DNA from: an uncultured bacterium
GTDB lineage: Bacteria > Auribacterota > JACPWU01
DNA: 32,000 bases
Assembly: GCA_964640155.1 (NCBI GenBank)
Contig: CAZXEQ010000007.1
Coordinates: 60,001-92,000 of the forward strand
Direction of reading: 5' to 3'
This document shows positions 1 to 31,276 of the stretch, piece after piece; within the stretch, counting starts at the first letter, position 1; each line of letters begins with the position of its first letter. A program made the position numbers and the translations under genes. The notes below the pieces were generated by a model. The model had not been told where the DNA came from. It searched no databases and saw nothing but the letters and a program-made list of their open reading frames with translations.

Positions 1-2200
1 ACTTTGAAAAAAGGCCGATTAAATGAATTGCCAGAAGAGTTAAAAAATGAAGCAGCTTTGAATGAATGGAAAGATCGGCTTAAAAAAGTTCTTAAGGATG
101 AAGAGTTGGCTTCTCGTCTTACTTTCATTATTGAGCCTCTTCTCAAACAAATTCATCTTTCAGATCAGAGAAAAAATCTTAACCAGATTGCAGAACAATT
201 GGGAAATAAAGATAAGTCAACTAGGGCCAGAATAGAGGCTTTTGAAGCAAGTCTAAATCAGAGAATTACTGAAAAAGAAGCGGCTATCGAAGCTCTTAGA
301 GAATTAGAAAATAAAGGTATGGAAGCTAAGCGGCTTGCTTTTACTGCTCCTGGTGTGACCTATATTGGCATTGGAGATTTGGCTTTTGAAAAATTAGGCG
401 ATCGCGCTCGTAAACTCAGTGAGAGATTCTTCCCTCAAGGGGGCAAGAAGCTTCATAAAGCCAATGTGGATGAAGTGGATAGTGTTCTTGAGGATCAGGC
501 GTTGATGGATTATGTGATGGCGCAACCTTCAGGAGACTTAAGTGCTATAGAGAAAGAAATGTGGACTTTTGCTGGAAGTGTATCAGAAGAAATAAGACCT
601 TTTGGACTCGAGAGAAAAATAGGACTTCAAAAGGAAGAGATTCAAGCACAAGAGACAGAACAAGTTGTTGGGGCAAAGCTTACTCTTTTCACCAAGGATA
701 AAAATAACGATGTCTTAAGATTGACCAAGGCGGGCCGTCAAAGAGCCATGGACGCTTATAATGTGTTACGTCAAAAAATGATGGGACGCAAAGAACTTCC
801 TTCTATGCCGGAGTTTATCAAGATGGTTGAAAAATCATTGAAAGCTCGTGAGCTTCGAAAGAGAGGCGAAGATTATGAAATAGATGATGCCAGCGGTAGC
901 ATTCGATTGATTGAAAAAACAACAGGAGGTATCAATGATCGTCGTGATAGTGCCTTAGGTATTGCCTTGGATGTTTTGAATTCGGATCGTGTAAGGACAT
1001 TAGGTGATAATCGTACCAGTGCTAAGATCAGTGGTGGAGACGTGATTAAGGAACTTTTTGAAGGATTCAGCGGATACAGTGGATCTGTCGATACACGTGA
1101 AGCCAGAAAAGAATTTGAAAAAGGATTTGGAAAGAAGAGTACTCAATTTGTCAGAATTCCTAATTATTCTGCAAGTAAACGCAATATTCTTGCTCCGAAA
1201 ATTTTCAAAAACGATAATGCAGCACAAGCTTGGTTAGAAGAACAGGCGAGAGAAGTTATGCAGCATACGACTGCGATTATCACTTTACGAAGTGTTAAAC
1301 AAGTCGAAGATTTAGCCGCTAAAATGGAAGGGAAAAAAGAATTTAAAGGTAAAGTTCTTATTTTTAGAGGTTCAGAAAATGATGAACAAAGACGTCTGCT
1401 TTTAGCTCAAGCCAGTGAACCAGGTTATGTTTTAATACAAACTATGATCGGGGGTCGTGGAACAGACTGGGGCTTGGCTGATTTTGGATTAACAAAGGAG
1501 ATGTTGGATGAGGCTTTAAAAGGAAAGGGTCTTTCTGAAGGTTTAAGAAAAGCTCAGTTGGATCAATTAGAGGGTATAACCAAGAAATTAGCAGGAAACA
1601 CAGCTAAATTGACACCTGCTGAAGTCACTCAAGCTCGGAATATGAGTCAGACAGAGTTGCAGTCGCAGGATGATCGCTTGAACGAGCAGGTAAATTTTCT
1701 AGAAGAGTTTAATAAGACAGGCGAATCTCTTGATCAAGCCTTAGAGACGGCAAGAAAACAGAAAGGGCTGGCTGAAAAAGCTTTTAATGCTGCGTCTGCT
1801 AATGCTGCGCCTGCGGAAATTAAAGTGGAATTATCGTTAGGGCGTTGGCTTGCTTCTCGACGACTAGAGGTTTTAGAAGCACTTCAGAAATCAGGTCAGT
1901 CTGTGAATGAAGAATTAAAAAATGCAAGAGAAGCAAAAGAAAAGGCTAGCAGAAAACTTCTTGTTCGTGATTTAGAAAAGTTTTTTGAAAATCTTACAGA
2001 AGGAGCTGATGAGGCGCTTCGTAAGAAACTTGACCAAGTCTGTCAGAGAACCTTTATGAAATTTGCTTATGGTTTCTATATCATGCGCAATGTATTTCGA
2101 AGCCGTCGTGTGGATATACAAGTAGATGGCCGTGGTGCCCGACAAGCTGATCCAGGAACTTCCATTGAATTTAGTTCTTTAGAAGAAACAGGAGCTGACA
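1..2200 (+). other. SecA-type DEAD motor region of the giant protein (NBD1 C-terminal part and NBD2)
   Basis: Window versus E. coli SecA, recalled from memory. AFTAPGVTYIGIGDLAF...KLHKANVDEVDSVLEDQA (nt ~340-500) vs AYAADITYGTNNEFGFDYL...KLHYALVDEVDSILIDEA. FEGFSGYSGSVDTRE (nt ~1057-1101) vs YEKLAGMTGTADTE. VRIPNYSASKR vs VVPTNRPMIRKD. IQTMIGGRGTDWGL (1435-1476) vs ATNMAGRGTDI. FRSRRVDIQVDGRGARQADPGTSIEFSSLEE (2095-2187) vs [31 protein letters not shown]. Confidence 0.75.
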
Positions 2201-5200
2201 TTTTAGAAATTATCCAGCCCGGTTTAAGACAAGAGCAGCTGGACGGCCAGCTTCATCAGAAAGGAAAAGAGGGCCGTGATCGAATTGCAGCAAATGAAAA
2301 GAAATATGCCAAGTTCTTGAAGTTGAGAGAGGAATATCTAGATGCTTTAGATAAGTTGGAAACCATGGACGAGAAGGATAAGTCGGGTATTGCCACATTA
2401 CAAAAAGAGCTGAGCCGAATGGAACAAGAGATACAAACGATGAAAGCTGAGGCTCAGTTGAATTTGGATATCAATGATATGGATCAGCGTTTGGAAAAGG
2501 GTGATAAAAACAATGTGGGTTATCATATTTCTGAACGTCTTTCGGATGTTTTTGGAGGCATTCGTGAAGGTACATCGGATGTGACAAGTGTCACAGTGGC
2601 CAAAGCTTTGATTGAAAAAGTCATTGAAGAAGCGAAAAAATCTAAAAATCTTGCCCTTGTTCAAGAGGTTTTGAAAAATGCTTTTGACATTCGAAAGATC
2701 GAAGGCTTGTCTTTAGAGCAATTAGATCTTCTCAAAGAAGAACTCTTGAGTCAGTTGGCTCGTGGAGACATTCAATTAGATGGACAGGTTTTTGAAGAGG
2801 GCTTAAGTCAGGCAAATATGGATTTCATCGATAGACAGCAGGAAATTGAACGTGCGGAAGAAGACGTCGCCAAACTTAAAAAAGCCTTGGAAGATTATCT
2901 GGGAGAATTTACGAAGGGAGTTCAAAATAATATTGTCGATGGGCTTGTAAAGGTTTATGGACCTAAAGAAGTTGGGACAGGTGGATTAGATCTAGATGAG
3001 ATGAGTGCAGCATTTACTGATAAAATGACAGATTGGATTGGGAAGCAAACTCCTGGACCTATTGCGAGTCGTTGGATACGTTATTGGAAGACTGTCTCTA
3101 AATGGACGGCAGCAAAAAGTAAAGGCTTGAGAAGTCGGTCTGCTACTGTTGGGAACTGGATTGCTAAACATGCCCAAGTTGAAGAGCAAAGAAAATATTT
3201 TGAAAAAGCTGCTCGTGCTTGGAACAAAGCCATTGCTCGCCTTGAGAACAGAGGCGAATTGTCAGATGCATACGTTGCTATTGACCGAAAGGTAGAAACA
3301 GAGTCCATTCAGCCGATGGGATCAAATCCATCGGTACGTCAAGTGACTCAGCTTGTGAAGAAACGTGAAGCCGAGAAGCGTAAAGGTCAGGGCGTGACGA
3401 TAGACTTAGCAAAAGCCAAGGCTACGCGTCAGAAAGCAGGAACAACTGCTGGATCTCCTGAGGCTCAACAACCCAAACGACCTGAAGCTGAGACAAGATC
3501 GCTAACCACATTACAGAAATTGATTCAAACTGCAGCGGTCGATGGGAGAGTTAAAGGAACGACAAGGCTTGCTATCCCAAGTGCCGACGGAAATAAATCT
3601 CAGAGATATGACTTTGACCTTACGGCTACAACAGCTCAAGTTTTGAATAGTAATGAAGCAGCTCGCGAGGCCCTTTATAAGGCTCTTGCATCTGGTCAGC
3701 AAGGGGCAGTTAAGGTTGGAGACCGCACCCTTATTTTTGCTAAGAATGCAAGGGGCTTGGTTCAAATCGTAGATGTATCAGATCTGAAGGCGGATAGTGT
3801 TACTCAGGCTTTGACTGAGGCTCAGACAAGAAAAGATGATGTTAAATTTATCTTTGGAGCGTCTGGCCAAGTGAATATCGTTATTGCAAAACCTGGTCAG
3901 ACTTCTTTAGGTGAGAAAGTCACTTTAACGGGAAGCAATCTTTTTGTACATTCAAATATCAATGAAGGAACTGTTGGGTCAGGGAATACTTTTAGAGATT
4001 CGAATCTTTCAAATGCTCAAGTGGGCAATAATAACAGTTTCAATCGAGTAGAAGCGTCAGATGTCACGGTTGGAAATGAATCTCAATTAACCAGGGTAAA
4101 AGTAAATAGTGCTGAAGTTGGAAATGCTTCAAAATTAGAAGTGGTTTCAGCGGTAACAGTCGTTGTAGGTGAAAATTCTCAACTTAAAGATGTACGTGCG
4201 GATCGATCTGTTGTTGCGGGTGATCAAGCTCGGTTAGAAAATGTGACGGCAGAATCAATCGTCGCTGGAGATCGCTCTAGAATGAAGTCAGTGACAGGCC
4301 GCAACGTTGTTGCTCAAGAAGGTGCAGATGTTGAACTCATGAATGCTCAAGCCCTCAATGCTCCTTCCGGAGATTTGACTTTTGGGAAGAATGAAGTTAA
4401 GAGAGGTGGATATAAAGAAGGCGTTTATGAAACAACAGGAGTTTCTGACCGAACGGCTCTTATTGGGCAGATGGAGCATGTTAGAGCAACTGAAAAAGAA
4501 TTATTTGGTGAAACACCTTGGGAAACAATTAAAGGAAAACTCAAAGGTAAAGTAGACAGTCTTATTACCTTGCTTCGCAATCAAGAGCCAACGGGTAGAT
4601 TGAAATGGGGTAAAAAATTCTTAAAGTCAATTGGAACTTACTTCAAAACTTTTGATGAAAGACAAAGGGAACAATCAACTCGAGATCGTGAAAGTGAACA
4701 AAATTTAAGAGCGGATGCGGCAGCTGAAACCCTTTATCCCAATTTTTCAACACCTGCAAGTGAGGTTTATGAAGGTTTAAACAGAAATCTATTTGGCGAA
4801 GAGGAAATGACTCATGTTGGTTTTATCATGGGAACATTAAGTGAAGAAGCGATGGCAAAAGCTATTGAAAGTGGCGTTTTGGAAGAGGGAGAAGATTCGT
4901 CTCAAAGAGTTAGTCCGTCTCCTCGTGCGGTTGCAGAAGGTCTTATTGATTTTGCACAGAGAATTTTAGACTCGGCTAAGGATCAGAGCCCAGCTGATCA
5001 AGAAGTAGCTCAGAAAAAGGTAGAAGCGCTTTGGGAAGCTGCTTTAAAAGTAGATCCTCGTCATGCAAAGACTTTACTCAGAATGGCAGAAACATTGTGG
5101 ACTCGATCACAAGGGAAAAACTTGGAGGCTTCTGAGAGAGAAGAATTAAAGAAGAACTCTCTTGCGTTATATCGGTTGGCTTATCGCGAAGATCCTTCGG

Positions 5201-8200
5201 ATGCTGAAACAGTGGAATCTTATGCGAATGTTTTGATTTCTCAGAACAAATCTGCTGAAGCTATTAAAATGGCTGAACGTTTGGTGAAGGAAAATAAAAC
5301 AAGAGAAAATAAACTTCTCTTAGGAAGAATATTAATGGCTTCTGGTAAGTTTTCTGAGGCCATGAATGTTTTCAGAAAGAATGGAGTTGTCTCTAAGAAA
5401 GTGGAACAGCGTTTGACACAATTAGAAGGCAAGGCAGGCGAGTTAGCTAAAAAGAGAGCAGAATTAGCAAATTTAGATAAACCGAAAAAAGGTGGTTTCC
5501 CAGGTGGAATGTCTCCTGAAATGCTTCAGGGAATGGATCCGGAGATGCTCGGTCAGAATCCAGATCTACTTAGCCAATTGATGGGTGGAGGAGAGCAAAG
5601 GGAATCTACACCTGAAGAGAAAGCCCAGATTGCAGAGCAGAAGAAAAAGTTGGGAGAAGAAATAGAGGTTCTTAGTAAGGGAACAGAAGATTTTGGAATA
5701 ACATTAGAGGAGCTTACTTCTGCTGGTGAAAAGATATCCTCTCAAGGTTTGGCACAAATTTTAATGAAACTCTACGGAGGAAAAATATCTTTAGAAAAAG
5801 CTAAACTTTTAGCGAAGACACTTCGTGAGTTGATGAATACACATCAAGAACTTTCAAAGATGAATGTTGCCCTTCTTCTCGCTATCAATGCAGAAGATTC
5901 TGATTCAATTCCAAGTCTTAAAGCAAAGATGATGAGTCAATTAGCTACTCAAGAAAAAGACATACATACACAAAGGGTGTATGCCTTGGCGGCTGCTTTC
6001 TATAATGAACAGGCCCAAGCTATTTCCGAATTGACACGCCGTCATCCAGAATTAAAAGGTCAAGATCTTTCAAGATTCTTACCCAATATGGAAATTTCTC
6101 AAGTGACTCCTGAGGTAGAAACACCTGCTGTACCGGATCAGACTGAAGCTGCTAAACAAAGCGAGGCTTTGGTAAAAGAAATAGCGGCTCAACAGGAAAG
6201 AGTTGAAGCTCTTAAGAAAGAATCGAAAGAACCTCAAGGAAACCTCGTTGACATACTCACATTATCTGAAGAATCTCAATCCTATGACGAAGATATTAAA
6301 GCTCAGGAAGAAGTGATTAGGAATGCAAAGGCCGAGAGAGACGAAGCTCGTCGCGTACTGACACTTTATAAAATGACGAAAGCTATGGATGAAGTCCAAA
6401 CTCAAGAGCAGGTGATCAATGCATTAAACCAGAAGATTTCAGATGCTCAGAGAAAAATAGAGAATCTTAGGAAGATGTCCTTAAGTCAAAATCTTAGGAA
6501 TGAGATGAGGGCCCGGCAAGGTGATTTTGTGGCTTCCAAAACTCAAGCCGATACAGAAGAAGCAAAAGCTACTCGTGAGCGGTATCTCATTCACGTGACA
6601 AGAGAACTTCAGCAAGCAGAAGAAAAGTTAGGCTCTCTGAAATCTCAACAAAAATGGTCAAATCGTGCGACGCGTGCAACAGAGGCCGTCTTGAACTTTT
6701 CATCGGCTCTCAAAGGTAAAGCGAAGAAGGTGGTTGTGCGCTTACAGTCATTACGACAAAAGCCAAAATTGGTTCCACGTGTTACAGAACAATCACTGGA
6801 AGCTTTAAAGAAGTATTTAAATATGCAAGCGATTGCTCTAAATATCATGGAACAATTACCTGCTCCTTCAGAGCAAACAGCTAAAGATGCTTATGCCAAA
6901 ACTTCTGAAGATTTAAAAGCACAAGCTGTTGTTTGGGAAGAAGAAATGTCAGAAGTTTTGAAGGCACAGCCAGAATTGAAAGATCATTTTATAGAGTTGA
7001 TGGGTATTGATACAACGGACATTTCTTCCACTCCTGCTTACAAAGTGAAACTACTGAAACATTGGGCCGCTGCCATTAAGGAACTGGCTGAAACGATGGA
7101 TGCTAAGGACGAGAAGCGAGCAGCATATATGAAGTTGGTTGAGACCCTTGAGGCAAAAGCCAAAGTTGCGGAAGCTGAAGCGAAGAAGATCGAAGACGAA
7201 AAAGCCAAAGTCCAAGCCGCTGAAGCTGAGGCTAAGAAAGTTAAGCCTGTGAATGTAAATGAAGCTGGTGTGGAAGATCTGATGAAAGTTCAGGGAATAA
7301 CGAAGGTTTTGGCCCAGGCGATTGTTCAAGCTCGTCAACAATTGACTATCTCGGGAAAGCCGGGTCCATTCCGAAGTCTCTCAGATTTATTCTTGGTTCC
7401 CGGCTTGAGACGTTTATTTCCTATGAGCATAGATGAATTAGAAGATCGATATGCAACGATAAGTGCTCAGCTTAAAGTAGAGACAACAAAACCTGATTCT
7501 CCAGAAGTTTTAAAACAGAGACAATCTTTACAAGGCGAGCTTCAAAGACTTTCTTCTCTACATCAAAGCGTGAAGAAATTTGCTCAAAATATTACTTTTG
7601 GAGAAGAGGGTACTGTCTATTATCCTGAAACAGTAGAGCAAAGGGTGATGGAGGCCTTAGAATCAGAAATTCAACGGAGAAGTGTTCCACATTTGGAATT
7701 CCTTCGTAATGAGTTAGCTAGAATTAAGGCTGAAAAAGTACGATGTCTTAAAGAAACTTCAAATTCTGATGTTAAAGCGCGTAAGACTGCTTTGAATGAA
7801 TATGCTGAATTGGAAAAAGAAGAGAAGCGCTATATTGCATTGGAGAAGAAACTACAGAGTAAGACCCTTTCGGAAGTGATAGAAGTTGTAACTCAGCTCG
7901 AATTAAATCCTTTGATGAAAGCTTATAGTAAAATTTTAATGCAGTTGGCAAAATTAGGTGAGAGCAATCTTACAGTTCAAGAACATGCGAAACGCTATGA
8001 AGCTTTAAGAAGAGATATGGTTAAGCTTAATCGGCAGTTTTCAGATTTATCTGTACAAACTGATCAGGTAAAAAATGTAATGGAAAGTCTAAAGAATTAT
8101 ACAAGTCAGATGACCGATTATCTTCTTGTAGCTCGGCGCGTCAATCGTGTTTCATCTTTAGCTGAAAATCTTCGAAGGCAGTTCAATGAAAATGAAGGGA

Positions 8201-9180
8201 CTTATGGCGTTTCAAATTTCTTTGAAAATGCAGCAAGATTTGTGAGAGCTGAGTTGACGCGTGAATATGGGAATTCAGAAGATACAACGATTGACCACTT
8301 AGGAGACTTGTATCTTTTAGTTTTTGAGTATCATTCATTGAGTGATCAGCAAAAGGAAGCTTTGGGAAATATTGCGAGGAACATTGATAATCCTGATGTG
8401 AGAAGTGGAATGGTGCAAGTCCTAGAAATTATGAAAGGTACTATTTCACTACAGAATGGGCAATTGGGAAGCCTTAAAGCTTTATTAGGACAGTTTTTTA
8501 AACAGCTTCCTAAAGCTTTAGAAATTAAAATTCTAGAAAATGTGATTCAAAGATATGAAAATATTTTAGCCAAAAACACCAGTAATATAGAGGTGAAAAC
8601 AATATTAGGTCTCTTATATGCTTCCCAAATTCAATCAGGGGTTACTTTAAATTTGGAAACTTTACTAAAAGTGAAAGGTTATCTTGAAGAAAGTTTAGTT
8701 GCAGACGCTCAAAATGCGGAGAAGATCTCTGCATTGAAAGAAGTGAGACTTCAAATTCAAAAAGAACTTGTTAGACAAGCTAAAGCGATGGCAGACAAAC
8801 CTGAAAATGCTGCTAATGCAGATGAGTATACGGATAGAGTTTTGGATATTCAAAATTGGCTTCGGGCATATCATCAAAATTTAGATTCTGCTGAGCAAGA
8901 AGCTTTAGAGAAAGAATTAAGAAATCAATTGCCCAAAGAAGCTGTGGATAAAGCGCGTGAAACATTGTTTGTAGATGGTTTAATGAAGCTTGCCAAATCT
9001 GGGAAGCCATTGACTTTAAGAGCAGTGGGCCCCGTGTTAGCCCCGCTCTTTGGCCCTGTTGCGCGTATCATTCGTGATGGTTGGGTCGACATTGATCAAC
9101 CTGTTCATTCTCCTTCTACTCCTCTTCCAAAGAAAGTATCCAATCCTTCCTCTGGAATCGATCATAGCCGATCGACGTAA
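1..9180 (+). CDS. Giant SecA-like ATPase fusion protein, 5'-truncated by the window edge (>3059 aa). SecA-type motor followed by ~2350 aa of coiled coil, solenoid repeats, TPR-like repeats and a ComEA-like HhH module
   Basis: Single open frame of 9177+ nt with no stop until TAA at 9178-9180. SecA-like motifs appear in the canonical order (see finding). The Walker A region expected ~100 aa before DEVDS is not in the window, so the gene continues upstream and the TTG at nt 4 is probably not the start. Confidence 0.85.
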   Translation, partial: TLKKGRLNELPEELKNEAALNEWKDRLKKVLKDEELASRLTFIIEPLLKQIHLSDQRKNLNQIAEQLGNKDKSTRARIEAFEASLNQRITEKEAAIEALRELENKGMEAKRLAFTAPGVTYIGIGDLAFEKLGDRARKLSERFFPQGGKKLHKANVDEVDSVLEDQALMDYVMAQPSGDLSAIEKEMWTFAGSVSEEIRPFGLERKIGLQKEEIQAQETEQVVGAKLTLFTKDKNNDVLRLTKAGRQRAMDAYNVLRQKMMGRKELPSMPEFIKMVEKSLKARELRKRGEDYEIDDASGSIRLIEKTTGGINDRRDSALGIALDVLNSDRVRTLGDNRTSAKISGGDVIKELFEGFSGYSGSVDTREARKEFEKGFGKKSTQFVRIPNYSASKRNILAPKIFKNDNAAQAWLEEQAREVMQHTTAIITLRSVKQVEDLAAKMEGKKEFKGKVLIFRGSENDEQRRLLLAQASEPGYVLIQTMIGGRGTDWGLADFGLTKEMLDEALKGKGLSEGLRKAQLDQLEGITKKLAGNTAKLTPAEVTQARNMSQTELQSQDDRLNEQVNFLEEFNKTGESLDQALETARKQKGLAEKAFNAASANAAPAEIKVELSLGRWLASRRLEVLEALQKSGQSVNEELKNAREAKEKASRKLLVRDLEKFFENLTEGADEALRKKLDQVCQRTFMKFAYGFYIMRNVFRSRRVDIQVDGRGARQADPGTSIEFSSLEETGADILEIIQPGLRQEQLDGQLHQKGKEGRDRIAANEKKYAKFLKLREEYLDALDKLETMDEKDKSGIATLQKELSRMEQEIQTMKAEAQLNLDINDMDQRLEKGDKNNVGYHISERLSDVFGGIREGTSDVTSVTVAKALIEKVIEEAKKSKNLALVQEVLKNAFDIRKIEGLSLEQLDLLKEELLSQLARGDIQLDGQVFEEGLSQANMDFIDRQQEIERAEEDVAKLKKALEDYLGEFTKGVQNNIVDGLVKVYGPKEVGTGGLDLDEMSAAFTDKMTDWIGKQTPGPIASRWIRYWKTVSKWTAAKSKGLRSRSATVGNWIAKHAQVEEQRKYFEKAARAWNKAIARLENRGELSDAYVAIDRKVETESIQPMGSNPSVRQVTQLVKKREAEKRKGQGVTIDLAKAKATRQKAGTTAGSPEAQQPKRPEAETRSLTTLQKLIQTAAVDGRVKGTTRLAIPSADGNKSQRYDFDLTATTAQVLNSNEAAREALYKALASGQQGAVKVGDRTLIFAKNARGLVQIVDVSDLKADSVTQALTEAQTRKDDVKFIFGASGQVNIVIAKPGQTSLGEKVTLTGSNLFVHSNINEGTVGSGNTFRDSNLSNAQVGNNNSFNRVEASDVTVGNESQLTRVKVNSAEVGNASKLEVVSAVTVVVGENSQLKDVRADRSVVAGDQARLENVTAESIVAGDRSRMKSVTGRNVVAQEGADVELMNAQALNAPSGDLTFGKNEVKRGGYKEGVYETTGVSDRTALIGQMEHVRATEKELFGETPWETIKGKLKGKVDSLITLLRNQEPTGRLKWGKKFLKSIGTYFKTFDERQREQSTRDRESEQNLRADAAAETLYPNFSTPASEVYEGLNRNLFGEEEMTHVGFIMGTLSEEAMAKAIESGVLEEGEDSSQRVSPSPRAVAEGLIDFAQRILDSAKDQSPADQEVAQKKVEALWEAALKVDPRHAKTLLRMAETLWTRSQGKNLEASEREELKKNSLALYRLAYREDPSDAETVESYANVLISQNKSAEAIKMAERLVKENKTRENKLLLGRILMASGKFSEAMNVFRKNGVVSKKVEQRLTQLEGKAGELAKKRAELANLDKPKKGGFPGGMSPEMLQGMDPEMLGQNPDLLSQLMGGGEQRESTPEEKAQIAEQKKKLGEEIEVLSKGTEDFGITLEELTSAGEKISSQGLAQILMKLYGGKISLEKAKLLAKTLRELMNTHQELSKMNVALLLAINAEDSDSIPSLKAKMMSQLATQEKDIHTQRVYALAAAFYNEQAQAISELTRRHPELKGQDLSRFLPNMEISQVTPEVETPAVPDQTEAAKQSEALVKEIAAQQERVEALKKESKEPQGNLVDILTLSEESQSYDEDIKAQEEVIRNAKAERDEARRVLTLYKMTKAMDEVQTQEQVINALNQKISDAQRKIENLRKMSLSQNLRNEMRARQGDFVASKTQADTEEAKATRERYLIHVTRELQQAEEKLGSLKSQQKWSNRATRATEAVLNFSSALKGKAKKVVVRLQSLRQKPKLVPRVTEQSLEALKKYLNMQAIALNIMEQLPAPSEQTAKDAYAKTSEDLKAQAVVWEEEMSEVLKAQPELKDHFIELMGIDTTDISSTPAYKVKLLKHWAAAIKELAETMDAKDEKRAAYMKLVETLEAKAKVAEAEAKKIEDEKAKVQAAEAEAKKVKPVNVNEAGVEDLMKVQGITKVLAQAIVQARQQLTISGKPGPFRSLSDLFLVPGLRRLFPMSIDELEDRYATISAQLKVETTKPDSPEVLKQRQSLQGELQRLSSLHQSVKKFAQNITFGEEGTVYYPETVEQRVMEALESEIQRRSVPHLEFLRNELARIKAEKVRCLKETSNSDVKARKTALNEYAELEKEEKRYIALEKKLQSKTLSEVIEVVTQLELNPLMKAYSKILMQLAKLGESNLTVQEHAKRYEALRRDMVKLNRQFSDLSVQTDQVKNVMESLKNYTSQMTDYLLVARRVNRVSSLAENLRRQFNENEGTYGVSNFFENAARFVRAELTREYGNSEDTTIDHLGDLYLLVFEYHSLSDQQKEALGNIARNIDNPDVRSGMVQVLEIMKGTISLQNGQLGSLKALLGQFFKQLPKALEIKILENVIQRYENILAKNTSNIEVKTILGLLYASQIQSGVTLNLETLLKVKGYLEESLVADAQNAEKISALKEVRLQIQKELVRQAKAMADKPENAANADEYTDRVLDIQNWLRAYHQNLDSAEQEALEKELRNQLPKEAVDKARETLFVDGLMKLAKSGKPLTLRAVGPVLAPLFGPVARIIRDGWVDIDQPVHSPSTPLPKKVSNPSSGIDHSRST
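3925..4356 (+). repeat. Nine tandem 16-residue (48-nt) protein repeats, consensus V-G-x-x-S-x-L-x-x-V-x-x-x-x-x-V; predicted beta-solenoid
   Basis: Exact 16-aa register read from the translation: LTGSNLFVHSNINEGT / VGSGNTFRDSNLSNAQ / VGNNNSFNRVEASDVT / VGNESQLTRVKVNSAE / VGNASKLEVVSAVTVV / VGENSQLKDVRADRSV / VAGDQARLENVTAESI / VAGDRSRMKSVTGRNV / VAQEGADVELMNAQAL. The repeats are divergent at DNA level. Confidence 0.7.
5026..5385 (+). other. TPR-like helical repeat region inside the giant protein
   Basis: ~34-aa helical units with an A/L/Y pattern, e.g. ALYRLAYREDPSDAETVESYANVLISQNKSAEAIKMAERLV and LLLGRILMASGKFSEAMNVFRKN. Judged by eye only. Confidence 0.45.
7249..7404 (+). other. ComEA-like helix-hairpin-helix (HhH) DNA-binding module inside the giant protein
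   Basis: VNVNEAGVEDLMKVQGITKVLAQAIVQARQQLTISGKPGPFRSLSDLFLVPGL fits the ComEA C-terminal pattern (I/V)N(I/V)N.A..E.L..(L/V).GI....A..I...R...G.F.S..DL..V.G(I/L). Confidence 0.6.
8914..9180 (+). repeat. Direct repeat DR1: last 89 codons of the giant gene, in frame; left boundary of the TA insertion
   Basis: Aligns with 11662-11930 with 16 substitutions and one 2-nt indel (C4 run versus C6 run). Similarity starts abruptly at 8914/11662 and stops exactly at the stop codons. Confidence 0.95.
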
Positions 9181-9596: not shown

Positions 9597-9932
9597 ATGT
9601 TGAACTATGTACCTCATAAAGGGGATTTGGTCATACTGACATTTGATCCTCAAGCGGGTCATGAACAGAAAGGACGAAGACCCGCACTGATTGTAAGTAA
9701 TAATTTGTTTAATCAATCTACGGGTTTTGCCATTGCTTGTCCCATTACAAACACGGATCGTAAAATCCCATTTCATGTAAAAATCCATCCATCTTCTTCA
9801 CTCACAGGTTTCGTGATGGTAGACCAGGTTAAATCGATAGATTATCGAACCAGACAGGTCAAATATGTTGAACGAGCCCCTGTAGCATTGTTAGAGGAAG
9901 TATTAAGTATTTTAGATGCCAGTCTTTTTTAA
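9597..9932 (+). CDS. mazF: MazF/PemK family endoribonuclease toxin
   Basis: 111 aa. YVPHKGDLVILTFDPQAGHEQKGRRPALIVSNNLFNQSTGFAIACPITN... parallels E. coli MazF/ChpB (YVPDMGDLIWVDFDP..GSEQAGHRPAVVLS...). Typical antitoxin-then-toxin order. Confidence 0.9.
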   Translation: MLNYVPHKGDLVILTFDPQAGHEQKGRRPALIVSNNLFNQSTGFAIACPITNTDRKIPFHVKIHPSSSLTGFVMVDQVKSIDYRTRQVKYVERAPVALLEEVLSILDASLF

Positions 9933-10014: not shown

Positions 10015-10929
10015 TTAACCCCATGGACCAGAATTTTTCCATTCTTGATCAAAATTTTTATTTTGATCAATTGCCTTAATGGGCTTCAGAAGAAATTTTT
10101 CAATTGCCTCGGCAACATCTTTAAGCTTGTCCGGAACATTTTTGATTTTTCCCTTTGTCAGAAAAGCTTTCCAAAGCATTTGACGATCAGAGCTCTCGTC
10201 ATAAATTTGTTCAGCAAAAAGTGGAGATTTTGTAGGAATTACTGTCTTTCGATGGGTAAAAGTTTTTTTGAGAGCTTCTACAAGAGTCTGACCTTTGAAA
10301 TGAAATTGCTGAGCCATGAGCCAAAGATCATAAAAATCTTTCATTCTGCTATTAAGAAGTCCAAGCTTTATCATAGATTCAAATTTTTCAGCGACAACAC
10401 TTTCTTGCGGGTATCCTTTTAAATGTGGTTTTGGAAAATCTAAAATTACAGGATAATCAATCACTATAGATTTAGGATAAATCATATCTCCAAATCCAAA
10501 GTCTATTTGCATCGATATTCGTGAACGCTCAAGAAAACCTTTAAACTTAATTCTCACACCTTCGTAGTCTGCATCCTCTTTGATTTTTTGCCCTTTGATA
10601 GTGTTAGGATCATATACAAGACCATCTGATATGACATTAACTCTACAAATCTTTTTAACTACTTCTTCAATCTTGTTTACTTGATTGTCATAATGGGCAA
10701 GGAAATCAATGTCCAATGTTGCTCGTCTTTCAGGCACTTGCCATACTGTAAACATCAATGCCCCTTTTAGAATGAATTTATTGGCATATTCAGATTGACT
10801 GAGTCGATAGAGGAAGCGCTCCATCGCATAATATTGAAGGATCTCTGCAAAGGGTCGATTTAATTCTATTGCTTTATTCTGAATTCTATTTCGAACGGAT
10901 GCTTCAATATTTTTAATTTTTTGCGTCAC
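10015..10929 (-). CDS. AbiEii/AbiGii-family nucleotidyltransferase toxin (DUF1814, type IV TA)
   Basis: The family-typical motif RATLDIDF follows GALMF..W. The size fits the family. The ORF track start is 10974. I prefer GTG at 10929 because it gives VTQKIKNIEASVRNR..., a typical family N-terminus, and a 4-nt GTGA overlap with the abiEi stop. Confidence 0.8.
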   Translation of the reverse strand: MTQKIKNIEASVRNRIQNKAIELNRPFAEILQYYAMERFLYRLSQSEYANKFILKGALMFTVWQVPERRATLDIDFLAHYDNQVNKIEEVVKKICRVNVISDGLVYDPNTIKGQKIKEDADYEGVRIKFKGFLERSRISMQIDFGFGDMIYPKSIVIDYPVILDFPKPHLKGYPQESVVAEKFESMIKLGLLNSRMKDFYDLWLMAQQFHFKGQTLVEALKKTFTHRKTVIPTKSPLFAEQIYDESSDRQMLWKAFLTKGKIKNVPDKLKDVAEAIEKFLLKPIKAIDQNKNFDQEWKNSGPWG

Positions 10930-11528
10930 AATATTGTCTCCAAAAGTGGTTTGATAATATTTGCAACACGGCAAATATCAGCATAGAACATAATTTCCTT
11001 GGGAGATATACCTTTTTCAAGAACCGCTGTTTTAAGGGCGTCTCGTGCAATATTGATTCCTATTTTATTTCTAAACTTAAAGCAATCAGCCACAGTTTTA
11101 GCCACATTATAAACCTTCACCTTATAACCATCTATTTCTTGCTCTACAATTCCAGCGTTCCAAGTTTCTTTGGAAAAATGATAGTAATGAACAGGAGGAT
11201 AATTAATTTTATTGGCATGGTTCCCTTGTGGTATAGCAAGATCTATGAGCCTTGGTATCTCACTGGTTACTTCATGAAATGCCAGGGCAGAGAGTAGACA
11301 AATCACTCCTTTAGGAGATTTCATTGAAACCATAATAAGATCAGGATTGGATAGGGAAGTGCTCATCGTAAGTTTATACAGAGCACGATCTATTTTCTGA
11401 ATTTGTTTCAAATGCAGTAGGACTTTAAGATCAGATTTGTTAAAACCTGTATGGATAATGTCAGAGTATGTAGCTAGTCCTCTCCTCTTTTTGAAAAAGT
11501 TAATCAAACGCTCTCTTTTAGAGATCAT
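10926..11528 (-). CDS. AbiEi-family antitoxin / transcriptional regulator (type IV TA)
   Basis: 200 aa. The N-terminal winged-helix-like segment (...LATYSDIIHTGFNKSDLKVLLHLKQIQKIDRALYKL) resembles the AbiEi_4 domain. It lies immediately upstream of, and overlaps, the DUF1814 toxin gene. Confidence 0.8.
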   Translation of the reverse strand: MISKRERLINFFKKRRGLATYSDIIHTGFNKSDLKVLLHLKQIQKIDRALYKLTMSTSLSNPDLIMVSMKSPKGVICLLSALAFHEVTSEIPRLIDLAIPQGNHANKINYPPVHYYHFSKETWNAGIVEQEIDGYKVKVYNVAKTVADCFKFRNKIGINIARDALKTAVLEKGISPKEIMFYADICRVANIIKPLLETIL

Positions 11529-13091: not shown

Positions 13092-13230
13092 TGCGCCATG
13101 CAGGGATCGGCGCCTTCGGGTCTTCGCTTCGCTACGCCCTCCGGTCGGCCACCCGTCCCGACTAGATGTCATCAATCATGCACAGCATGATCGATATTTA
13201 TATTCTGTCGGGGGACTCCATTCGATCCCT
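13092..13230 (-). other. tRNA-appended GC-rich module A (downstream of tRNA-Lys); ends with an 18-nt copy of the tRNA-Lys 3' end
   Basis: Read on the minus strand: AGGGATCGAA (13230-13221), complementary to the tRNA-Lys T-loop TTCGATCCCT. Then GGAGTCCCCCGAC, a 10-bp hairpin (13171-13195), GTCGGGA, the 17-mer CGGGTGGCCGACCGGAG (13155-13139), a small hairpin and GAAGGCGC. It ends with CGATCCCTGCATGGCGCA (13109-13092), identical to 13316-13299. Confidence 0.85.
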
Positions 13231-13298
13231 TCAGGAATACTTTCTAGTCTTTAAGGTAGAATATGCGCGTGATTTATAAGAAGAGAATTTTTGAAAAT

Positions 13299-13371
13299 TG
13301 CGCCATGCAGGGATCGAACCTGCGACCCACTGATTAAGAGTCAGTTGCTCTACCAACTGAGCTAATGGCGC
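13299..13371 (-). tRNA. tRNA-Lys (anticodon CTT)
   Basis: The reverse complement folds as a cloverleaf: GCGCCAT TA GCTC AGTTGGTA GAGC A ACTGA CTCTTAA TCAGT GGGTC GCAGG TTCGATC CCTGC ATGGCGC A. 73 nt, no encoded CCA. Confidence 0.95.
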
Positions 13372-13450
13372 TTTAAATTAAGTCGAAATAATAGCAGGTC
13401 GCCTTCTAAATAGGTAGTCAAAATTTTATCTTTTTTGATACCATCTTATC

Positions 13451-13480
13451 TTGCATTACTTCTCCATCTTGTCTTATATT
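13451..13480 (+). promoter_or_regulatory. Putative promoter of tRNA-Leu
   Basis: TTGCAT (13451-13456), 18-nt spacer, TATATT (13475-13480), 14 nt before the tRNA 5' end. Confidence 0.5.
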
Positions 13481-13493
13481 GTACGTTCTTTAT

Positions 13494-13575
13494 GCCGCGG
13501 TGGCGGAACTGGCAGACGCGTAGGATTTAGGATCCTATGCCGTAAGGCGTGTGGGTTCAAGTCCCTCCCGCGGCA
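13494..13575 (+). tRNA. tRNA-Leu (anticodon TAG), class II with long variable arm
   Basis: GCCGCGG..GCG GAACTGGCAGA CGC G TAGGA TTTAGGA TCCTA TGCCGTAAGGCGT GTGGG TTCAAGT CCCTC CCGCGGC A. 82 nt, no encoded CCA. The T-stem has one T:T mismatch (positions 50:64). Confidence 0.9.
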
Positions 13576-13634
13576 AGGAATTGGAATAAGAATTTTTTGA
13601 AAAGAAAGCTCACAGACTTTTGGTTCTTTACGTT

Positions 13635-13762
13635 GGGACTTGAAGGGAGCCCCGACACTTTAATGATGCACATCTGCCAGCGGCCGATGTGCGACGTTTA
13701 GTTGGGGCGGGTGGCCGACCGGAGTCCCAAAGGGACGGAGGCGCCAAGTCCCTCCCGCGGCA
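13635..13762 (+). other. tRNA-appended GC-rich module B (downstream of tRNA-Leu); ends with an 18-nt copy of the tRNA-Leu 3' end
   Basis: GGGACTTGAA (13635-13644), complementary to the tRNA-Leu T-loop TTCAAGTCCC. Then GGGAGCCCCGAC, a hairpin (13668-13692), GTTGGGGC, the 17-mer CGGGTGGCCGACCGGAG (13708-13724), hairpin GTCCC-aaa-GGGAC and CGGAGGCGC. It ends with CAAGTCCCTCCCGCGGCA (13745-13762), identical to 13558-13575. Confidence 0.85.
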
Positions 13763-13785
13763 GAATTTGTGGATTAAATGTTCAG

Positions 13786-13825
13786 TCCTCGCTTCACTTG
13801 AAGAGAGGATGGGATTAAGTTTTTG
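13786..13825 (+). terminator. Possible intrinsic terminator after module B
   Basis: Hairpin TCCTC-g-CTTC actt GAAG-a-GAGGA (13786-13809). A T5 run begins at 13820, displaced about 10 nt from the stem. Confidence 0.35.
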
Positions 13826-13831
13826 AAAATG

Positions 13832-13859
13832 TTGTAAATTCTTAAATACACGCTATAAT
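13832..13859 (+). promoter_or_regulatory. Putative promoter of tRNA-Gly
   Basis: TTGTAA (13832-13837), 16-nt spacer, TATAAT (13854-13859). Confidence 0.5.
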
Positions 13860-13897
13860 TATGCCTCATTTTAGAATTTAGGTTTTTGATTTAGAAA

Positions 13898-13972
13898 GCG
13901 GCGGTAATTCAGGGGTAGAATGCCTGCTTGCCAAGCAGGATGTCGTGGGTTCAAATCCCATCCGCCGCTCCA
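13898..13972 (+). tRNA. tRNA-Gly (anticodon GCC), CCA encoded
   Basis: GCGGCGG TA ATTC AGGGGTA GAAT G CCTGC TTGCCAA GCAGG ATGTC GTGGG TTCAAAT CCCAT CCGCCGC T CCA. Confidence 0.95.
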
Positions 13973-14027
13973 ACTGTTTAGTAAGAATATAGCGAAGGAA
14001 TGTTGCTAGTTTTAAGAGCGTCACAGA

Positions 14028-14196
14028 GGGATTTGAATAGGAGGCCCGACCAAAATATTAGTAAATCATGCAGTGCATGATTTGCGACTACTAGGAGGGC
14101 CGGGTGGCCGACCGGAGGGTGAGTCCTGAAAGGACGAATCCCGGAGGCGCCAAATCCCATCCGCCGCTCCAACTGTTTAGTGAGAATATAGCGAAG
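14028..14196 (+). other. tRNA-appended GC-rich module C (downstream of tRNA-Gly); ends with a 46-nt copy of the tRNA-Gly 3' end plus trailer
   Basis: GGGATTTGAA (14028-14037), complementary to the tRNA-Gly T-loop TTCAAATCCC. Then GGAGGCCCGAC, a hairpin (14063-14083), GGGCC, the 17-mer CGGGTGGCCGACCGGAG (14101-14117), hairpin GTCCT-gaa-AGGAC and CGGAGGCGC. It ends with CAAATCCCATCCGCCGCTCCAACTGTTTAGTGAGAATATAGCGAAG (14151-14196), which matches 13952-13997 with one mismatch. Confidence 0.85.
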
Positions 14197-14298
14197 TTCC
14201 CTTCTAAGCTAAGAGGGGTGAGGGGAGTTATAAAAAAGTAACCCCTCAAACTCCCCTTTGAAATAAAAGGGAGAATATAAAATAAATAGGAGTTCTTT

Positions 14299-30541: not shown

Positions 30542-31276
30542 ATGGATGGCATTTTAGTTGTAGATAAGCCGGCGGGGATTACATCACATGATGTGGTTCT
30601 TTTTGTAAGGCAAAAATTTGGTATTTCGAAAGTAGGTCATACAGGGATTCTGGATCCCATGGCTACTGGAGTGCTTATTCTTCTTCTGGGAAAGGAGACG
30701 AAAAGAGCCAATGTTTTTATTGATCAGGAAAAGGAATATCAAGCTGTTTTGGGATTAGGAAGTGAAACAAGTACACAAGATCGCGAAGGAAAATTTCTTT
30801 TAAAGAATGACATTAGTCATTTGAGACAAGATCGTGTTGTCGAAGTCTTAAATGCTTTTAAAGGAGAGATTTCTCAGATTCCTCCAATGGTTTCTTCCAG
30901 ACGTTTTCAAGGTAAGCGCCTTTATGAACTGGCTCGAAAAGGGATTGAAGTTGAACGAGAACCCAAAAAAGTTTGGATTTATGATTTAAAAATTGAATGG
31001 GTGAGACTTCCTTTTATATCTTTTCGGCTAGCATGCTCCAAAGGAACTTATGTGCGTACCATTTGTCATGATGCGGGAAAGATATTAGGCGTTGGGGGTT
31101 ATCTCTATGCTCTTCAGAGAACCAGATCAGGACCTTTTTCTTTGCAGCATGCAGTGATGTGGCCTGAACTAGGAGAAATGAGTCGAGAGAATTTAAGAAC
31201 TCGACTTATGCGCTACGAGGATGTTCAAAAAGGAAATGTTTCTTTACCTCAATTTATTGCCTCATCGGTTGCTTGA
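30542..31276 (+). CDS. truB: tRNA pseudouridine(55) synthase
   Basis: GILVVDKPAGITSHDVV and GHTGILDPMATGVL (catalytic Asp) motifs. Confidence 0.95.
   Translation: MDGILVVDKPAGITSHDVVLFVRQKFGISKVGHTGILDPMATGVLILLLGKETKRANVFIDQEKEYQAVLGLGSETSTQDREGKFLLKNDISHLRQDRVVEVLNAFKGEISQIPPMVSSRRFQGKRLYELARKGIEVEREPKKVWIYDLKIEWVRLPFISFRLACSKGTYVRTICHDAGKILGVGGYLYALQRTRSGPFSLQHAVMWPELGEMSRENLRTRLMRYEDVQKGNVSLPQFIASSVA

Follow-up and report, generated by a model that had tools for sequence, protein, structure and literature searches.

Why would the 3' ends of three different tRNA genes be repeated a short distance downstream of the genes themselves, always from the same nucleotide on? This question is raised by a stretch of 32,000 nucleotides from an uncultured bacterium of the Auribacterota (called the window here), in which the genes for tRNA-Lys, tRNA-Leu and tRNA-Gly are each followed by a partial copy of their own end. 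A sequence-only reading had described these repeats and had explained them as traces of tyrosine-integrase elements. A repeat search of the window bears out the description: each copy begins at C56 of the tRNA and matches the original over 18 of 18 nt (Lys), 18 of 18 nt (Leu) and 45 of 46 nt (Gly). In all three, GGCGC stands directly 5' of C56, where the tRNA itself reads GGTT, and the material between the paired repeats is 189, 169 and 153 nt long, respectively. The explanation fares less well, and in our view the evidence favours an RNA-guided mobile element of a new kind over the scars of phage integrases.

Three units behind three tRNA genes

The features of the window are collected in Table 1. 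A core of 16 nt, GGGTGGCCGACCGGAG, occurs three times where 0.03 occurrences are expected, so the arrangement lies far beyond chance. Besides the partial tRNA copy, every module contains an inverted copy of T54-C63 (T54-T63 in the Lys case) of its own tRNA, called the guide in what follows, which pairs with the downstream tRNA fragment according to inverted-repeat search and minimum-free-energy folding. The assignment of the Lys guide rests on the inverted repeat, the minimum-free-energy fold and covariation across the family. The Leu spacer is homologous to the spacer of a Gly unit in a related genome (locus L023) and therefore belongs to the inserted unit. Past the Lys downstream copy, the flank is colinear with an empty site in L023, and the Gly downstream copy runs on into native sequence upstream of tig, the orthologous flank being present in L023 as well. 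By consensus matching, no promoter-like site was found within the modules of the window, which suggests that they would be co-transcribed with the tRNA. Each partial tRNA copy is the outer end of one copy of a structured non-coding element that had not been described before.

Table 1. Features of the Lys, Leu and Gly units and their neighbours in the window
Feature	Position	Strand	Basis or remark
tRNA-Lys(CTT)	13299..13371	-	ARAGORN; Rfam tRNA 74.7 bits
Left (upstream) copy of Lys duplication: last 18 nt of tRNA-Lys, C56-A73	13316..13299	-	
Lys spacer L, AT-rich, tRNA A73 to guide	13231..13298	-	sequence, alignment
Lys guide AGGGATCGAA, reverse complement of tRNA-Lys T54-T63, 5' strand of closing helix P1	13221..13230	-	
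Lys core: TGGAG, P2 hairpin domain, CGGGTGGCCGACCGGAG, P3 hairpin, GAAGGCGC	13110..13220	-	core motif at 13139-13154
Lys covariance-model match	13094-13237		50.4 bits
Lys downstream copy of C56-A73 (P1 3' strand and tail), then native tRNA trailer	13092..13109	-	repeat search; 18/18 with 13299-13316
tRNA-Leu(TAG)	13493..13575	+	ARAGORN, Rfam; C56-A73 = 13558-13575
Leu spacer L	13576..13634	+	
Leu guide GGGACTTGAA, reverse complement of tRNA-Leu T54-C63	13635..13644	+	
Leu core: GGGAGC, P2, CGGGTGGCCGACCGGAG, P3 TCCCAAAGGGA, CGGAGGCGC	13645..13744	+	
Leu covariance-model match	13628-13760		55.4 bits
Leu downstream copy of C56-A73	13745..13762	+	repeat search (13736-13761 vs 13549-13574, identity continuous from C56, 13745/13558, on); exact identity 18
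Promoter-like site TTGTAA-16-TATAAT before tRNA-Gly	13832..13859	+	consensus match only
tRNA-Gly(GCC), CCA encoded	13898..13972	+	ARAGORN, Rfam; C56 = 13952
Native tRNA-Gly trailer, within left copy of 46-nt duplication	13973..13997	+	repeat search
Gly spacer L, begins GGAATG as in other Auribacterota units	13998..14027	+	
Gly guide GGGATTTGAA, reverse complement of tRNA-Gly T54-C63	14028..14037	+	
Gly core: TAGGAGG, P2, CGGGTGGCCGACCGGAG, P3, CGGAGGCGC	14038..14150	+	
Gly covariance-model match	14021-14166		43.7 bits
Gly downstream copy: from C56 to CCA, and a further 25 nt of trailer	14151..14196	+	45/46 with 13952-13997; sole mismatch 13983/14182

Distribution, anatomy and fold of the family

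The family was found about 190 times, in Omnitrophota, in Auribacterota (the lineage of the window) and in neighbouring candidate phyla including TA06 and Elusimicrobiota; the collection, obtained by a sequence-pattern scan, comprises 67 genome loci and 102 metagenome loci. The C56 junction is kept, too, by about 130 non-redundant copies taken from metagenomes and other genomes. The upstream neighbour is a tRNA gene, directly adjoining and on the same strand, and about 30 isoacceptors, nearly every tRNA species, are used; in the sampled loci, which form a biased sample, modules stand behind 86 of 125 tRNAs. Two copies sit inside non-tRNA sequence, one of them in a pyrK-like coding gene (locus L189). 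Each copy matches its own target, whether tRNA or not, and a complete tRNA (or ORF) is present upstream of every unit. The order within the unit is spacer, guide, conserved three-way-junction core and target copy from C56 on. The core reads GGGAG, P2, CGGGUGGCCGACCGNAG, P3, GNAGGCGC, and the unit terminates in GGCGC. The length is about 100-190 nt, reaching 350 nt at the widest, there is no ORF, and cargo was absent from all copies examined. Tandem arrays of units are found in L032, L034, L040, L060, L137 and L143.

With respect to the T55/C56 junction, the guide runs as the reverse complement of positions -2 to +8..16 of the uninterrupted target. Together with the downstream copy, it forms a covarying closing helix, P1, on the tRNA-sense strand; the fold also has the helices P2 and P3. 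RNAalifold gives compensatory changes in 18 of 32 pairs, and its helix 4 (GGUG.CC with GG.CGCC) is invariant and hence carries no covariation signal. Over 90 copies, 94% of the cells are paired, against 77% in shuffled and 37-40% in slid alignments, and 23 pairs have changed on both sides. G-U pairs are far more numerous than A-C pairs, which places the fold on the tRNA-sense strand. Across phyla, the strands of the junction hardly vary, an invariance that is partly an effect of ascertainment because the scan pattern required the core. The two guide bases adjoining GGGAG pair with the two bases that precede the junction in the intact target: TT with AA 62 times, TT with AG (wobble) three times, CT with AG in L128, L157 and L091, and CC with GG in L189.

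These pairings bear on an earlier claim, namely that the duplication arose at the level of DNA and was not selected as RNA. Insertion at the DNA level, with a specific junction in the T-loop, agrees with what was found. The second half of the claim does not hold for the first 8-16 nt of the copy, which form the closing helix and co-evolve with the guide, as seen in L058; only the rest of the downstream copy, beyond P1, decays (L090).

Other roles for parts of the module were considered. A mimic of the acceptor/T-stem minihelix, that is, a tRNA-like 3' end, agrees only with the Lys family, in which P1 reaches position 71; in most copies, P1 has 7-10 bp and the acceptor strand is unpaired. A mimic of another kind was suggested by GUGGCCGA, which we take to resemble a class II D-arm. 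The sole covariation seen there, from GGCCGACC/GGCGCC to GGCCTACC/GGAGCC in four copies, does not fit the register of a D-arm mimic. The hairpin of the L domain is not part of the native tRNA trailer, as tRNAs free of the module do not have it.

Cores that are about 90% identical stand behind different tRNA species in different genomes. In L052 and L053, the cores are 96% identical and the guides, of 13-16 nt, are unrelated; this likeness may be due to gene conversion of cores, since L043 shares the guide of L052 and not its core. A general concerted evolution of cores within a genome was also considered and set aside, being seen in one genome (L052/L053) and not in SO_LW3_130 (mean 0.75).

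Junctions, gain and loss

The right junction is fixed, with GGCGC joined to C56 in every copy. The left junction is variable, and the duplication, of 18-46 nt overall, usually spans exactly C56-N73, or C56-CCA where CCA is encoded. Its length is 18 nt (31 cases), 19 nt (14) or 20 nt (5), with a tail to 44 nt, in genes without encoded CCA, and 21-22 nt in 8 of the 16 genes that encode it. At the same tRNA-Gly of two close relatives, the right junction is common and the left junctions lie at +28 and +1. The upstream gene stays intact, and the downstream copy is the original DNA. At the pyrK-like gene of L189, the upstream copy is in frame and differs mainly by synonymous changes, and the downstream copy retains the original stop codon, overlapping the next ATG.

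The comparison of orthologous loci, proposed together with the integrase explanation, yields the precise absence that it was meant to look for. The 95%-identical relative L023 is without the Lys module and one repeat (207 nt); when positions 13110-13316 are taken out of the window, 159 nt face 159 nt in L023, of which 146 are identical. In a relative of 76% identity (L024), the tRNA-Gly is found without module. A precise empty site can also be obtained by deletion between the 18-nt repeats. Units have been both gained and lost between close relatives, and decayed copies exist. Across Omnitrophota and Auribacterota, vertical descent seems to account for many of the copies at the Lys-Leu-Gly-tig locus, and the fold is under purifying selection; this would fit a host-useful RNA too.

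Tyrosine-integrase elements that use tRNA genes leave a stretch of identity that begins in the T-loop and ends at, or beyond, the 3' end of the tRNA, which is thus restored. The repeats might accordingly be attL/attR-like scars, and the modules remnants of such elements or mini-elements mobilised by an integrase. The likeness extends to the insertion near the tRNA 3' end, the identity block that keeps the tRNA functional as in classical elements, and the precise polymorphism of presence and absence, an empty site included. Nevertheless, we consider this explanation highly improbable and largely refuted already. No integrase is found in the window or within 8 kb of the 67 genome loci. Instead of one attB specificity per lineage with fixed attL and attR, near-identical cores use about 30 isoacceptors as well as coding and other non-tRNA targets, each with its own matching repeat, and, at the same tRNA in two relatives, the left junction differs and the right one does not. 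The units measure 100-190 nt and not kilobases, and they have a strongly conserved, covarying and strand-specific RNA fold. The antisense guide crosses the junction by 2 nt, and an internal guide to the uninterrupted target has no place among att sites. Moreover, the family is absent from viral contigs.

A proposed guide-directed insertion element and its alternatives

The explanation that we favour, with a probability slightly above one half (about 0.55), is that behind each duplication stands one copy of a small insertion element that is non-coding and non-autonomous, directed by a guide and probably mediated by RNA, and which encodes a structured RNA and has the T-loop of tRNA genes as its target. 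The element would be transcribed together with the tRNA, and its guide would pair to the left and right of the insertion point, in the way known from internal guide sequences of mobile introns. Joining of the 3' end would take place at T55/C56, and a trans-acting enzyme would copy the element into DNA, possibly by a target-primed or reverse-splicing-like route in which the first cut is set by the guide and the second is variable. The survivors would be only those insertions whose duplication restores the gene, which would account for the sharp minimum at C56-N73. The T-loop would offer a safe and universal target just 18 nt from the end of the gene. Against the explanation speak the unrelated guides on nearly identical cores in L052 and L053, whose re-specification for new targets it does not account for, and the lack of a partner enzyme near the copies at the loci searched.

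Introns of groups I and II share with these elements an internal guide whose sequence is complementary to the intact target on either side of the point of insertion; in the introns, this is the internal guide sequence or the EBS-IBS pairing, and they can move by reverse splicing. As with P10 and P1 of group I introns, the guide segment that pairs downstream lies 5' of the one that pairs upstream, and the 3' end of the element falls exactly at the junction, as in mobile introns. Unlike them, the units have no catalytic core (no Rfam match) and no intron ORF, and are much smaller; in place of the P3-P9 core of group I with its G-binding site, there are only P2, P3 and the junction strands. Splicing is not needed here, unlike in introns, because the 3' part of the target is duplicated and the gene is uninterrupted.

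These likenesses lead to a more specific version of the favoured explanation, in which the core would act as a small ribozyme of a new type, with cleavage and/or ligation at GGCGC/C56 and, by means of the guide, at U55/C56. The units would be freed as linear or circular RNAs, similar to retrozymes or viroid-like RNAs, and would spread by reverse splicing into T-loops and reverse transcription. The junction-spanning guide that resembles P1/P10, the near-invariant junction strands, the tandem arrays and the exactness of the right junction in every copy are all consistent with this idea. We still think it rather unlikely: the core shows no likeness to any ribozyme or intron family of Rfam 15, it is far smaller than any self-splicing RNA that we know of, and the invariance counts for less, having in part been required by the scan.

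With SINEs and site-specific non-LTR retrotransposons, which use target-primed reverse transcription (R2 is co-transcribed with rRNA), the family has in common a fixed 3' junction, a variable 5' junction and a duplication of variable length. As SINEs are, the units are short, non-autonomous and probably co-transcribed with a host RNA gene, and they have host-gene sequence in their own RNA structure. The differences are the bacterial host, the lack of a poly(A) or LINE-like tail and the choice of target by an antisense guide. A reverse transcriptase or endonuclease partner of the SINE type was not found within 8 kb of the modules at the 67 genome loci.

More generally, no integrase, reverse transcriptase, recombinase, nuclease or transposase was found near any copy, either within 8 kb at these 67 loci or among the ORFs of the window. 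An all-against-all clustering of 910 ORFs from the same loci gave no recurrent mobility gene and only housekeeping neighbours (tig, clpP, serA). Pfam assigned unannotated ORFs of the window to toxin-antitoxin genes and pseudopilins, with no reverse transcriptase, integrase or transposase among them. In Rfam 15 cmscan searches of the window region (E<=10) and of five other loci (E<=1), the tRNAs reached the threshold and nothing else did; other matches were far under the gathering scores of their families, and none fits the fold of the module. The literature searched, also with the core sequence as a text string, contained no relevant report. A phage origin was tried and rejected: the 16-mer alone matched only an unrelated phage coding sequence, and the specific pattern gave five viral matches, none of them confirmed by the covariance model or near a tRNA. 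Integron attC sites, retron ncRNA and IS200/IS605 ends were also discarded, the junction sequences or adjacent genes that define them being absent.

Among RNA-guided systems, the bridge RNA of IS110 and the seekRNA of IS1111 come close to the modules, being structured RNAs of similar size whose variable segment pairs with the target around a 2-nt step and has been reprogrammed for many targets in evolution. The module might therefore be the guide RNA, in a non-autonomous copy, of a recombinase of this type encoded in trans. The structured RNA of about 100-190 nt, its programmable segment pairing across a 2-nt step and the site-specific insertion at many different programmed targets would agree with this. 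We regard it as quite improbable. There is neither a DEDD recombinase nor a recurrent gene near the modules, the junctions (N73/L on the left, GC/C56 on the right) share no core dinucleotide, and a second, donor-binding guide is not evident beside the one that can be recognised. IS110 chemistry is not known to yield a target duplication of 18-46 nt. Small bacterial repeats, such as MITEs, REP, Correia and RPE sequences and the PATEs derived from IS200/IS605, are equally non-coding, multi-copy, structured and co-transcribable with their neighbours. In the present family, in contrast, the inverted arms are derived from the target and differ between copies, duplications vary in length, insertion occurs at an exact point of a conserved RNA-gene motif, and the core is conserved across phyla.

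A different view would be that the module is not selfish at all and is a cis-acting RNA on tRNA transcripts that benefits the host. It would work in an attenuator-like manner, with the guide pairing with either copy of the tRNA 3' half and the three-way junction binding a ligand or protein that decides on tRNA folding and maturation or on the end of the transcript. We find this less probable than the insertion element. In its favour, the tRNAs Lys(CTT), Leu(TAG) and Gly(GCC) upstream of tig have kept their modules in several phyla, and purifying selection is strong on P1, P2 and the junction sequences. The pairing of the guide with the tRNA's own T-loop extends 2 bases beyond its pairing with the downstream copy; the frequency of modules in the biased sample of tRNAs and the lack of promoter-like sites within them point in the same direction. 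Against this, the module is dispensable, being absent behind the same tRNAs in close relatives and decayed in some copies. The same architecture is seen in a coding gene and in other non-tRNA insertions, and tandem arrays and variable left junctions are signatures of insertion. In addition, the origin of new sets of guide and copy at about 30 tRNA species is not accounted for.

Taking the insertion element a step further, we suggest, more tentatively and with some doubt, a new class of bacterial RNA-guided mobile element: an RNA of about 100 nt, possibly catalytic, with an intron-like guide, whose 3' end is joined to U55/C56 of tRNA genes or transcripts and which becomes established in the DNA together with a target-repairing duplication. 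SINEs and retrozymes would have a counterpart in bacteria, one whose programmable guide could also be turned towards protein-coding genes.

If the favoured explanation is correct, a widespread and hitherto unnoticed element of candidate phyla (Omnitrophota, Auribacterota, TA06, Elusimicrobiota and others) would combine a junction-spanning antisense guide, a junction at an exact position of tRNA's most conserved loop and a target duplication that spares the host gene, three properties that to our knowledge do not occur together elsewhere. It would add a new natural case of programmable insertion in which a very small RNA supplies the guidance, and would be a candidate either for a ribozyme or for an RNA-protein machine of a new kind. 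Assembly breaks at tRNA clusters in these genomes would be accounted for as well, and for tRNA annotation it would mean that such partial tRNA copies are neither pseudogenes nor prophage scars. Even as a host regulatory RNA, a tRNA-linked three-way-junction motif present across phyla would make up a new class of RNA that merits biochemical work and an entry in Rfam.

Units behind three tRNA genes

Each of three tRNA genes in the window is followed, in the sense of the tRNA, by a G+C-rich module and then by a direct copy of its own 3' part. The sequence-only reading had reported three duplications of 18, 18 and 46 nt beginning at C56 of the T-loop and directly preceded by GGCGC; the repeat search found the same start in 3/3 modules, with GGCGC before the copy vs GGTT in the tRNA. 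The modules have GGGTGGCCGACCGGAG in common, which occurs nowhere else in the window (0.03 expected by chance). Since repeats, C56 start and GGCGC were all recovered, that observation was correct in every detail. What it overlooked is an inverted copy (reverse complement) of T54-C63 of the own tRNA in each module, the guide, which in minimum-free-energy folds of the three modules forms, together with the downstream tRNA fragment, the helix (P1) that closes the entire module.

Coordinates of features in the window and in loci from other genomes and metagenomes (L handles)
Feature	Position	Strand	Detail
tRNA-Lys(CTT)	13371..13299	-	tRNA call
tRNA-Leu(TAG)	13493-13575	+	tRNA call
tRNA-Gly(GCC)	13898-13972	+	tRNA call
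Lys repeat	13092-13109 = 13299-13316		18/18 identical, repeat search
Leu repeat	13745-13762 = 13558-13575		18/18 identical, repeat search
Gly repeat	14151-14196 vs 13952-13997		45/46 identical, repeat search
Lys guide			AGGGATCGAA
Leu guide			GGGACTTGAA
Gly guide			GGGATTTGAA
Long ORF	4-9180	+	3058 aa
Toxin-antitoxin genes	9597-9932; 10015-10974; 10926-11528	+; -; -	just upstream of pseudopilin genes and tRNA cluster
Inverted repeat	14197-14274		GGGGTGAGGGGAGTT...AACCCCTCAAACTCCCC
Its counterpart in L023	1625-1700
truB	30542-31276	+	tRNA pseudouridine-55 synthase
GGCCTACC sub-family, L078	716-835
GGCCTACC sub-family, L065	3486-3606
GGCCTACC sub-family, L039	2857-2976
GGCCTACC sub-family, L048	2542-2660
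Unit-like sequence, L025	8700-8936	-	3' of tRNA-Leu 8937-9020

The trigger factor (tig) encoded just 3' of the cluster is 95% identical to that of Candidatus Auribacterota MAG GCA_041906865.1 and 50% identical to one from a MAG labelled Chlamydiae. Comparison with orthologous tRNA loci of relatives, the check proposed in the earlier reading, gave a precise empty site: in L023, the 95% relative, native flank directly follows tRNA-Lys, and once window 13110-13316 (207 nt, the Lys module plus one repeat) is removed the loci are colinear (159 vs 159 nt, 146 identical). L023 carries the Leu module. Its Gly module agrees with that of the window in right junction and downstream flank but has the left junction 1 nt after the discriminator N73 (28 nt in the window), a spacer resembling the Leu one and another P2. 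The tRNA-Gly of L024 (76% relative) has no module, and that of L025 (50% relative) has one with a 35-nt duplication. The unit-like sequence of L025 has a likeness of the guide and core start (GGACTTGAAAGGAGGCCCGCA) and a P2-like hairpin without the CGGGUGGCCGACC core; it could belong to a divergent subfamily or be a copy in decay. Contigs of independent assemblies of the lineage (L022, Logan SRR8893623, and L024) have their ends at the tRNA/module cluster, 148 and 259 nt before tig, which suggests that repeated modules break short-read assemblies.

Elsewhere in the window, a single ORF occupies the first 9 kb. The toxin-antitoxin region encodes two toxins, one MazF/PemK-like (Pfam E 2.5e-27), the other an AbiEii nucleotidyltransferase (Pfam E 2.7e-39); a 200-aa ORF without Pfam match, perhaps the AbiEi partner, overlaps the upstream end of AbiEii. 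Between the Gly unit and the start codon of tig there is a long imperfect inverted repeat, which is conserved in L023. The substrate nucleotide of TruB adjoins the insertion point; the presence of truB is probably a coincidence, since the end of the nusA-infB-rbfA-truB operon is its standard position.

Family, RNA fold and guide

Scanning with the pattern CGGGTGGCCGACCGNAG-N(8-38)-AGGCGCC gave 67 loci with one genome per species, about 4 of them chance matches in coding sequence, and 102 loci from metagenomes. Most matches come from Omnitrophota, the rest from Auribacterota, TA06, Elusimicrobiota, Ratteibacteria and MAGs labelled Planctomycetales. A covariance model trained on 27 minimal copies and run on the collected loci yielded 90 copies, about 20 without the exact pattern. 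Nearly every copy has a tRNA gene directly upstream on the same strand (about 30 isoacceptors), and tandem arrays also occur (L032, L034, L040, L060, L137, L143). Nothing comparable to the module was found in sequence and pattern searches of viral contigs, in Rfam 15 or in literature searches. tRNA-Tyr units 95–97% identical including guide and flanks occur in MAGs assigned to three phyla (L059, Elusimicrobia; L066, Ratteibacteria; L069, Omnitrophota), reflecting either horizontal transfer or mislabelled bins.

On the tRNA-sense strand, the unit consists of a spacer L (5–90 nt), the guide (7–16 nt) and two further bases, GGGAG, the variable P2 hairpin domain, CGGGUGGCCGACCGNAG, P3 (a CCG/CGG base with a variable hairpin), GNAGGCGC and the target copy from C56 onward. 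Compensatory double changes affect 18/32 pairs (RNAalifold, 27 copies). Among the 90 copies, 94% of cells form pairs vs 77% in shuffles and 37–40% with partners slid, and 23 pairs have changes on both sides. The fold belongs to the tRNA-sense strand because G-U pairs are common and A-C pairs rare. The core junction strands are near-invariant, partly through ascertainment, since the scan pattern demanded them; among pattern-free copies the single covariation is GGCCGACC/GGCGCC to GGCCTACC/GGAGCC, in four copies. This sub-family, with U-A for the paired G-C and a longer P3, stands beside a standard unit in the same Lys-Leu-Gly cluster in L078 and L065. In one Omnitrophota lineage, spacer L contains two covarying hairpins absent behind module-free tRNAs.

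In the uninterrupted target, the two bases just before the junction are paired by the two that separate guide and GGGAG: TT faces AA in 62 distinct copies and AG (wobble) in 3 cases, CT faces AG in tRNAs with an unusual C54 (L128, L157) and at a non-tRNA site (L091/L197), and CC faces GG in L189/L116. At the right junction (GC|) the two bases after the guide have no possible partner. Complementarity of the guide to the intact target thus runs from -2 to +8..16, with the 5' part matching the downstream side and the 3' part the upstream side, as in the internal guide of an intron. That the module is instead the guide RNA of an IS110-type recombinase seems to us very improbable. A recurrent guide variant (L043, L052, L154) ends in GAGAA opposite T-loop TTCGA, its GA facing G57-A58; these could be tandem sheared G-A pairs inside P1 and not a defect.

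Target duplication and proposed mode of insertion

All tRNA-linked copies have GGCGC|C56 as their right junction, whereas the left one varies. Among non-redundant copies, exact identity in CCA-less genes is 18 nt (31 cases), 19 (14) or 20 (5), longer stretches tailing off up to 44, and in CCA-encoding genes 21–22 nt in 8/16; therefore, the duplication spans at least the remainder of the gene. The downstream copy is the original DNA, as it is continuous with the native trailer, and the functional tRNA is completed by the upstream copy. Where the copies diverge, the downstream one tracks the guide, not tRNA constraints: in L058, G68-to-U makes a G-U pair with the guide and breaks an acceptor pair, and in L090 it has decayed beyond the 10 nt paired with the guide. 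L179 is a rearranged copy with about 90 nt inserted between core and downstream tRNA-Glu copy.

The architecture is not tied to tRNA, because a coding-gene insertion has it too. The L189 element is inserted close to the 3' end of a pyrK-like ORF following carB, and its guide (GGAAGACCG plus GG) fits the ancestral site CC|CGGTCTTCC. The downstream copy holds the original gene end, with a stop codon overlapping the ATG of the next gene; in the upstream copy the reading frame is preserved and the differences are mainly synonymous. The interrupted gene is always left intact by this architecture. L140 and L160 are rearranged copies; L140 has a guide (GGCGGAAGTTGA) antisense to the 3' end of the upstream ORF, with which the downstream flank has only 7 nt in common.

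The repeats had been interpreted as tyrosine-integrase scars. This is scarcely credible: it is contradicted by too many targets (about 30 isoacceptors plus non-tRNA sites), a left junction that varies, the lack of integrases in the window and near the 67 loci, the RNA covariation and the antisense guide. We are dealing with a family of small insertion units whose fold is conserved and strand-specific. Their 3' junction is exact and their 5' junction variable, the target is duplicated, and an antisense guide spans it. Target-primed insertion has the same geometry and mobile introns the same guide layout, from which we infer guide-directed insertion, probably RNA-mediated, by a trans-acting enzyme or the RNA itself. 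The first cut would be fixed at the guide-defined site and the second would vary downstream, the duplication arising between them. Selection would retain only insertions whose duplication restores the gene, which would account for the sharp minimum at C56-N73. A special case of this reading, a new ribozyme that cleaves or ligates and gives circular RNA products, is distinctly unlikely.

Evolutionary behaviour

The Lys-Leu-Gly cluster upstream of tig-clpP-clpX accounts for 19/67 genome loci. Throughout Omnitrophota its modules appear to be orthologs, individual lineages having gained some, lost others or kept them as decayed remnants. Such long retention, together with an attenuator-like arrangement of three segments, would suit a cis-regulatory RNA useful to the host and attached to the tRNA; we think this unlikely, however, as modules are dispensable and non-tRNA insertions exist.

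In different genomes, Thr, Met and Leu(GAG) genes are followed by cores about 90% identical, variable P2 included. In one MAG (L052/L053), 96% identical cores with unrelated guides lie behind Ser and Leu genes, and the orthologous Ser copy of another genome (L043) has kept the guide and not the core, which points to exchange of cores between copies. For hops between tRNAs whose T-loops are alike, point mutation would suffice to re-specify the guide (Leu to Gly needs one change in the window lineage), but for coding-gene targets this is not obvious. The observation is real and the earlier interpretation needs replacing: the object seems to be an element of a new kind, probably an RNA-mediated, guide-directed insertion unit.
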